Positions 17,730-17,805 of a DNA stretch of 64,000 nucleotides are shown here, in pieces; within the stretch, counting starts at the first letter, position 1; each line of letters starts with the position of its first letter. The stretch is from a virus (taxonomy: Duplodnaviria; Heunggongvirae; Uroviricota; Caudoviricetes), in IMG/VR virus record IMGVR_UViG_3300028602_000006; one strand, 5' to 3'. The notes below the pieces were generated by a model. It saw only the letters and a list, made by a program, of their open reading frames with translations, made no database searches and was not told the DNA's origin. A program made the position numbers and the translations under genes.

Positions 17730-17805
17730 GGTCTGTTAGCTTAGCGGTTTAAAGCTTCACTCTCTAAAAGTGAGATCATGGGTTCGAATCCCATACGGAC
17801 CACCA
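17730..17805 (+). tRNA. amber suppressor tRNA, anticodon CUA
   Basis: Cloverleaf: GGTCTGT/ACGGACC acceptor, GCTT/AAGC D-stem, TCACT-CTCTAAA-AGTGA anticodon arm, ATGGG-TTCGAAT-CCCAT T-arm, A73 + CCA; TGTATAAT just upstream. Confidence 0.9.

Follow-up and report, generated by a model that had tools for sequence, protein, structure and literature searches.

The subject of this analysis is a tRNA gene with the anticodon CUA, referred to here as tRNA(CUA), which lies in a 64,000-nt stretch of phage DNA (the window). The window corresponds to approximately 64-128 kb of the ENA metagenome contig ERZ27250894:k141_2398814 (182,571 bp), and the sequence that we analysed consists of the window joined to the contig up to its 3' end, 118,156 nt in total. 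The features that the argument needs are the following, in window coordinates.

17730-17805, plus strand: tRNA gene of 76 nt with anticodon CUA and encoded CCA (ARAGORN, Rfam RF00005, covarying family).
17764-17766, plus strand: anticodon CTA (tRNA positions 34-36) within the 7-nt loop CT-CTA-AA (sequence, ARAGORN).
17719-17724, plus strand: perfect -10 hexamer TATAAT with TG before it, ending 5 nt 5' of the tRNA (sequence).
17696-17705, plus strand: CACGGAATGT box, which recurs before the genes at 18091 and 34009.
17140-17358, plus strand: 72-aa gene ending in TAG (TAG 17356); the gene of the T4_Y16D family at 17362-17694 follows one codon later in the same frame.
6876-7115, plus strand: 79-aa gene ending in TAG (TAG 7113), in frame with the 116-aa gene at 7134-7484.
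45586-45723, minus strand: 45-codon ORF with a paralogous N-terminal leader, common to three full-length paralogues, and a TAG at 45588-45586.

An earlier note, made from the window's letters, had described a canonical 76-nt cloverleaf with a CT-CTA-AA loop and an encoded CCA. This description was borne out by ARAGORN, by Rfam (RF00005, 65.9 bits, E 4e-12, full length 1-71, against a gathering score of 29) and by reading of the sequence. The acceptor stem (GGTCTGT/ACGGACC) read in this way starts with G1-C72 and includes a single U5-G68 pair, and two bases, U8 and A9, lie between it and the D stem. The D arm is GCTT-AGCGGTTTA-AAGC, whose 9-nt loop holds G18 and G19; the anticodon stem (TCACT/AGTGA) is a perfect 5 bp; the variable loop is GATC, of 4 nt; and the T arm, ATGGG-TTCGAAT-CCCAT, contains GGTTCGAATCC. 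The discriminator is A73, and the CCA occupies 17803-17805. The anticodon loop, C32 U33 C34 U35 A36 A37 A38, has the normal seven nucleotides with U33 and a purine at position 37, as an amber suppressor should; the RF00005 score above the gathering threshold, G18 G19 and the T-psi-C loop are those of an elongator-type tRNA. As judged from its sequence, 17730-17805 is thus a genuine tRNA with a CUA anticodon, of the amber-suppressor type.

A sequencing error in the anticodon, named in the earlier note as a way in which its reading could fail, is unlikely, since window and ENA contig are identical over 10676-31974, tRNA(CUA) included, and since related CUA tRNAs occur in other phages. Elsewhere the two sequences do differ: the contig has an extra tandem duplication of about 34 nt near window 61958-61960, which is intergenic, and the window is longer than the contig by 21 nt somewhere in 35815-56675. 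These differences suggest two assemblies or population variants of one phage, which agree in the anticodon.

ARAGORN gives the label 'Pyl' to every CUA tRNA. The hallmarks that we used for tRNA-Pyl are a 6-bp anticodon stem, a 3-nt variable loop, a short D loop that lacks G18 G19 and one base between acceptor and D stems; with a 5-bp anticodon stem, a 4-nt variable loop, a 9-nt D loop with GG and the two bases U8 A9, tRNA(CUA) is excluded from this class. The Pfam hit lists for the gene-called parts of the contig contain no Pyl genes (pylS/pylBCD). A Gln-derived suppressor, such as those of the TAG-recoded code 15 phages, is excluded as well, on the basis of G1-C72, A73 and a GCUU...AAGC D arm, as opposed to the U1-A72, G73 and GCCAAGCGGUAAGGC of the Gln-like suppressors. 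The opinion of the earlier note, that the body is unlike those of Gln, Pyl, Tyr or Leu tRNAs, is therefore supported by features of stems, loops and discriminator.

Where this tRNA does belong was revealed by blastn against cultured phages, which gave, over most of the tRNA, 76.4% identity to XacN1, with two tandem copies annotated as tRNA-Sup, and 78.7% to RAS14/CM1, with one tRNA-Sup-CTA each. The genes of Xanthomonas phage XacN1 (AP018399) and of RAS14/CM1 have G1-C72, A73, the CUCUAAA loop, the GTTCGAATCC T loop and the encoded CCA, as does tRNA(CUA), and XacN1 and the Stenotrophomonas phages RAS14/CM1, like this phage, are standard-code phages in which TAG is a stop and no readthrough targets were found. 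There are also differences, in that the XacN1 and RAS14 copies have three Watson-Crick anticodon-stem pairs and a 5-nt variable loop, whereas tRNA(CUA) has a perfect 5 bp and 4 nt; the XacN1 copies lie in tandem in terminal repeats, whereas tRNA(CUA) is single and away from tRNA arrays; and the hosts of XacN1/RAS14/CM1 are Gammaproteobacteria, whereas this phage is phage-G-like by its capsid. In the tRNAs of XacN1 (L401:1496-1654) and RAS14 (L402:1498-1573) the mismatches fall at both ends of the anticodon stem, and the loop is thus effectively enlarged, unlike that of tRNA(CUA).

A family pattern, built from the features common to tRNA(CUA) and to the CUA tRNA of a complete relative (G001, see below), was then searched in IMG/VR. 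It retrieved about ten large-phage contigs of 48-476 kb whose tRNAs have the same architecture, most of them in tRNA arrays; the exact pattern of tRNA(CUA) had no match in IMG/VR. In an alignment of nine members (A3), 98.4% of stem cells pair and compensatory changes occur in 14 of 21 pairs, which 0 of 500 shuffles reach; the search pattern itself had set the D stem, the loop and part of the T arm, which leaves only the remaining stems, among them the acceptor and anticodon stems, as informative. All 12 acceptor and anticodon-stem pairs covary among the nine members, and no shuffle or slid register comes close. These comparisons place tRNA(CUA) in a jumbo-phage tRNA-Sup(CUA) family of the XacN1/RAS14 type, and indicate that one body type is common to unrelated jumbo phages and evolves under cloverleaf constraint.

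The major capsid protein of the phage shares 55.8% identity with gp27 of Bacillus phage G (497 kb), and 62-98% with those of 80 IMG/VR contigs with sizes of up to 548 kb. From these identities we consider the contig to be a piece of a phage-G-like huge phage, with a whole genome of probably 250-550 kb. Around tRNA(CUA) are genes for an RNA ligase (Rnl), Pth2, RtcB, the T4_Y16D-like protein, an HNH protein and a PARP; the T4_Y16D-like gene at 17362-17694 adjoins the tRNA on its upstream side, and RtcB, within this RNA-repair block, is 600 nt upstream. Farther away are genes for ArdC, an L12-domain protein, TnpB copies, a ClpP-like protease, RNR and the large terminase (TerL), and the phage also encodes two nucleotidyltransferases of CCA-adding type, an intein-bearing AAA protein, proteins of 1874 and 1109 aa, and the major capsid protein (MCP). 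Megablast of window 14-22 kb against cultured phages gave no match, and an RtcB-based search for the locus in IMG/VR found nothing.

Several of these genes deserve a brief description. The two nucleotidyltransferases are large enzymes of PolyA_pol/CCA-adding type (L004:10422-12857, plus strand, 811 aa; L007:20029-22103, minus strand, at least 706 aa, with an HD domain), and together with Rnl, RtcB, Pth2 and an Acb1/2H-phosphoesterase-like gene they make up an unusually rich tRNA-repair set. Near structural genes are the AAA protein of 1003 aa (L004:15593-18604, plus strand), which has Hint/homing-endonuclease matches and probably contains an intein, and a 700-aa N6/N4 methyltransferase with a LAGLIDADG match (L006:19260-21362, plus strand). 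The translation-related protein at 43148-43777 (plus strand) has 209 aa and a Ribosomal_L12 (L7/L12) domain match among the precomputed Pfam hits of ENA. Only two tRNAs were found in the 118 kb, tRNA(CUA) and a tRNA(CAT) at 28457-28533 (plus strand), both detected by ARAGORN and at full length by Rfam; complete relatives carry 36-60. With G1-C72 and an anticodon stem that lacks GGG/CCC, tRNA(CAT) is not an initiator, and is a candidate for an elongator Met tRNA or for a lysidine-type Ile2 tRNA that reads AUA, the latter suiting a genome of 37% GC.

The relatives show that CUA tRNAs recur in this clade. G001, a whole genome of 476 kb whose capsid protein is 93% identical, has 59 tRNAs, a tmRNA and one tRNA(CUA), which is only about 66% identical to that of the window and has another genomic position. 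In G003 (255 kb), the D arm of the tRNA(CUA) is of the Gln type and the discriminator is G73, and a third type of CUA tRNA is common to G007 and G008. No CUA tRNA was found by pattern scan in G004, G005 and G006, of which G005 (461 kb) was also checked whole with ARAGORN, and five large relatives contain no close copies of tRNA(CUA) or of its Y16D-like neighbour. Phage G itself has no CUA tRNA by pattern scan; it does have a gene annotated as 'tRNA-other (tta)' (NC_023719.1 411932-412006; L398:3933-4007), located 54 nt upstream of the tmRNA gene, whose ARAGORN fold places C at position 33 and lacks a purine at 37, and which may not be a normal decoder. Phage G, the closest cultured relative by capsid, is thus like this phage in being huge and in having a suppressor-like tRNA, and has many tRNAs and a tmRNA; the anticodon of its suppressor-like tRNA, however, is UUA (ochre type) rather than CUA, the loop is odd and the gene is beside the tmRNA. 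In sum, there are at least three CUA tRNA bodies within the phage-G-like clade, in addition to the UUA tRNA of phage G, and the trait recurs.

Two of the CUA-bearing relatives also have ORFs with an RF-1 domain and GGQ motif, at G001:C1:232500-233138 (minus strand) and G007:C1:162044-162358 (plus strand). Their open frames, of 212 and 248 aa, are too short for RF1/RF2, and they are PrfH- or ArfB-like. No such ORF occurs in G003, G005 or phage G, nor in the 118 kb that we read, where tblastn with that of G001 gave no match.

The genetic code of the phage was evaluated from its genes. The MCP (phrog_2522, E 1e-71) and TerL are uninterrupted in code 11, and all the late genes read, namely these two, the ClpP-like protease and the 1874-aa and 1109-aa proteins, are intact. 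After filtering by coding score, 172 genes cover 89% of the 118 kb and end in TAA (97), TGA (49) or TAG (26, or 15%). TAG ends 9 of 99 genes (9%) in the early block, and 9 of 30 and 8 of 43 (19-30%) in the two late-type regions, which is the opposite of what avoidance of TAG in late genes would lead one to expect. When TAG is read as sense, coverage by ORFs of at least 150 codons goes from 0.72 to 0.75, a smaller gain than for TGA or TAA, and tblastn of this phage against two complete relatives revealed no TAG-specific in-frame stops within conserved matches. Among ORFs of at least 150 codons, TAG ends 17.0% in this phage, 16.8% in G001, 15.7% in G003 and 15.5% in the suppressor-free G005; G001 and G003, with their tRNA(CUA), use the standard code, and have no depletion of TAG when compared with G005. 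TAG is thus not recoded, and the phage uses the standard code. The seven TAG ends listed in the earlier note (7115, 12570, 17358, 19963, 30560, 39841 and 62609) all proved to be ends of well-scoring ORFs, and its statement that long genes are open in code 11, in a genome that is not fully recoded, holds in view of the intact MCP and TerL, the 15% of TAG ends and the standard code of the complete relatives that bear CUA tRNAs.

Back-up stops give no sign of suppression either. The distance to the next in-frame stop is not shorter after TAG than after TAA/TGA in the raw ORFs of this phage (p = 0.14), the same test in G001 found no enrichment (p = 0.77), and Fisher's test on the curated gene set gave p = 0.65 overall and, post hoc, p = 0.06 for the early block. 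Readthrough of the 26 TAG-ending genes would add a median of about 7 residues. tRNA(CUA) is not needed by the phage for any gene in the 118 kb read, and neither the stop-codon usage nor the back-up stops of the phage itself bear a footprint of this suppressor. Such an absence is equally expected of a tRNA that is inactive, weakly active or purely host-directed. The conditional amber readthrough that the earlier note had favoured has stayed a suggestion, as we found, in the 118 kb read, no convincing target, no back-up-stop signal and no TAG depletion; and its check for an RF2 or a cognate aaRS came out negative in the Pfam lists, which cover most of the approximately 108 kb of the contig for which gene calls were available.

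Two explanations by which the tRNA would serve the phage's own genes have to be weighed against these data. The contig is a fragment, 118 kb of its 182.6 kb were read, and the early genes of recoded phages remain standard-code (Borges et al., 10.1101/2021.08.26.457843), so that late genes recoded in a code-15-like manner, as in crAss, Lak and Agate phages, might be imagined outside the 118 kb. We regard this as very improbable, given the intact late genes, the higher share of TAG stops late than early, the standard code of complete CUA-bearing relatives, the lack of RF2/aaRS in the Pfam lists just mentioned and a tRNA that is not Gln-like. Programmed readthrough of a few phage genes, leading to C-terminally extended or fused isoforms (45723(-), 72-aa/Y16D and 79-aa/116-aa), seems to us unlikely as well, although it does not lack attractions. 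In two early TAG-ending genes, the frame continues past the TAG into the next gene without meeting another stop; the early TAG genes are bimodal, with a second stop within 3 codons in 6 of 9 and more than 110 codons open in 2 of 9; and the frame of the 45-codon ORF shows weak similarity to one of the paralogues that share its leader, which runs across TAG 45588. However, a search with the fused product of 17140-17694 matched only the 110-aa protein itself, and no fused homologue. In the homologues of the 79-aa product, similarity is confined to an N-terminal domain of about 75 aa, beyond which their tails are unrelated; the gene at 7134-7484 does not resemble those tails and is preceded by an AGGAG ribosome-binding site of its own. 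The frame past TAG 45588 is antisense to a convergent gene at 45076-45366 (plus strand), which the ENA gene caller also predicts and which scores 0.24, far better than the -0.08 to 0.10 of that frame; a homology search for the 45723(-) ORF gave nothing informative, and we take this ORF to be a decayed paralogue or mini-ORF, at best a weak target. Lastly, neither back-up-stop value for the curated genes, post hoc early block or overall, is significant. The 79-aa product itself is a stand-alone copy of a conserved domain (ITYRWW...EALEESA...DNIxMTDDDPEDGxEYxGWWE) that has no Pfam family, and that elsewhere is found in metagenomic proteins of 137-203 aa with variable C-terminal tails, some of them Cys-rich.

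With respect to expression, the earlier note had attributed to tRNA(CUA) an upstream element of its own. The element is there, since TGTATAAT occupies 17717-17724, directly upstream of the tRNA, but a consensus scan found no two-hexamer promoter, and no -35 is recognisable before the tRNA. A start directed by TATAAT would fall at tRNA position 1-2 and is predicted to yield a leaderless transcript. The homologue in G001 has TTGACA-N17-TATAAT 14 nt upstream and an identical AAGAT just 5' of the tRNA. The CACGGAATGT box, always on the plus strand, has exact copies at 17696, 18062 and 33966 and copies with one mismatch at 18249, 29715 and 39290. At 33966 and 39290 it sits between TTGACT and a TRTGn -10 region, and we therefore assign it, as a putative spacer/TRTG part, to a sigma-A-like promoter family of the phage, with a degenerate register at 17696.

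The amino acid with which tRNA(CUA) would be charged was approached by comparison and by identity rules. When any anticodon was allowed, many were found on this body architecture. A Trp(CCA) group has the D arm, loop context and GAUC variable loop of tRNA(CUA), but A1-U72 and G73, whereas Lys(CUU) examples have its G1-C72 and, in one case, A73; the CUCUAAA loop is one base away from that of tRNA-Lys(CUU). A scan for the D arm, which sampled 5-nt variable loops, found it to be generic, chiefly with Met and Lys anticodons. A Glu-like origin, hinted at by the 4-nt variable loop, was rejected, as phage tRNA-Glu genes have a different D arm. Plain similarity and a body-based isotype classifier (trained on 1592 phage tRNAs, cross-validated accuracy 0.79) left the isotype ambiguous among Arg, Lys, Trp and Met, with no confident class.

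According to the identity rules of E. coli, the elements for LysRS are U35, A73 and G1-C72, TrpRS and ArgRS need C35, and GlnRS, which often charges CUA suppressors, prefers G73 and U1-A72; bacterial TyrRS recognises a long arm, and tRNA(CUA) has no such arm. By these rules U35 in place of C35 and the lack of A20 make Arg unlikely, and A73 and G1-C72 do the same for Trp and Gln. Since U35, A73 and G1-C72 match its known identity elements, LysRS is our best guess, and we predict, with low confidence, that the amino acid is lysine.

Taking these results together, we favour, with a probability of roughly 0.6, that tRNA(CUA) is a functional tRNA of the amber-suppressor type, from a family that circulates among jumbo phages, and that it acts by competition with release factor 1 (RF1) rather than by dedicated decoding of in-frame TAG codons. 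It would be transcribed alone from the upstream TATAAT, or processed out of an RtcB-Y16D transcript, and would not need addition of CCA. A host aminoacyl-tRNA synthetase would charge it, LysRS being the best guess and GlnRS the alternative where the host has this enzyme, and the charged tRNA would compete with RF1 at UAG, causing partial, genome-wide readthrough of both host and phage messages. The benefit could lie in interference with host translation termination during takeover, in the buffering of a very large genome against amber mutations, or in a 'suppressor first' stage of a route to recoding, as proposed by Borges et al. The recurrence in the clade, the shared and constrained body, and the lack of TAG depletion or of an excess of back-up stops argue against a tRNA that shapes the phage's own coding; instead, a host-directed, weak or conditional role is indicated, and no new class of mechanism is opened.

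The position of the gene, 600 nt downstream of RtcB in a block with Rnl, Pth2 and CCA-adding-type enzymes, brings to mind a tRNA that does not decode at all, acting as decoy or substrate for the RNA-repair genes and for host anticodon nucleases, or persisting as a poorly charged, neutral passenger. A loop so close to that of tRNA-Lys(CUU), a genome that bears no footprint of suppression and the CUA suppressor reported for the crAss-like phage Lera, which appears unused (PMC12386605), would all agree with such a role. We nonetheless judge it improbable: in the relatives the CUA tRNA is in tRNA arrays or alone, and not beside repair genes; the full cloverleaf, T loop, encoded CCA and stem covariation point to selection as a working tRNA; and a cleaved Lys tRNA could not be replaced by a CUA tRNA. 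A bolder extension of the reading based on RF1 competition, which we offer as a doubtful speculation, is that the G1-C72/A73 CUA tRNAs of jumbo phages are a dedicated, horizontally shared takeover tool, charged by the host, probably with lysine, which forces readthrough of host UAG stops or of a few phage ORFs, such as 45723(-). If this were true, huge phages would use amber suppression as a regulated step of infection, separate from recoding of the genome.

Why jumbo phages with a standard code retain amber-suppressor tRNAs has been a question in print since at least 2018. XacN1 has two CUA suppressor tRNAs, and when its 18 TAG stops were read through in silico, no targets emerged (Yoshikawa et al. 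2018, PMC5852040). The Ralstonia jumbo phage RsoM2USA, which uses the standard code, has a CUA suppressor (PMC8504454), and the standard-code jumbo phage Agrobacterium phage Atu_ph07 a UCA suppressor (PMC6102473). Both resemble this phage, by their descriptions, in being standard-code jumbo phages with a single suppressor tRNA, which in them sits among many canonical tRNAs; that of Atu_ph07 suppresses opal, not amber. The CUA suppressor of Lera came with no sign of amber suppression (PMC12386605). With CUA suppressors of standard-code jumbo phages already published (XacN1, RsoM2USA), the novelty given to this tRNA in the earlier note was overstated: tRNA(CUA) is a further example of a known jumbo-phage puzzle, to which we add the comparison across the phage-G clade and the negative footprint tests. 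The TAG-recoded phages (crAss-like, Lak, Agate; Borges et al., 10.1101/2021.08.26.457843; Peters et al., PMC9523058) likewise encode a CUA tRNA; unlike in them, there is in the 118 kb of this phage no in-frame TAG in structural or conserved genes, no TAG depletion and no RF2 found. According to Borges et al., a phage that is closely related to recoded ones but itself uses the standard code carries a TGA suppressor tRNA, and they propose the gain of a suppressor as a step before recoding.

Suppressor-type tRNAs were also seen in other arrangements in IMG/VR. A contig of 309 kb has two different CUA tRNAs in tandem (L158:8726-8874), another of 214 kb has CUA and UUA tRNAs within one array (L156:5204-10422), and at a third locus (L162) a CUA tRNA lies 2 kb from a tmRNA.
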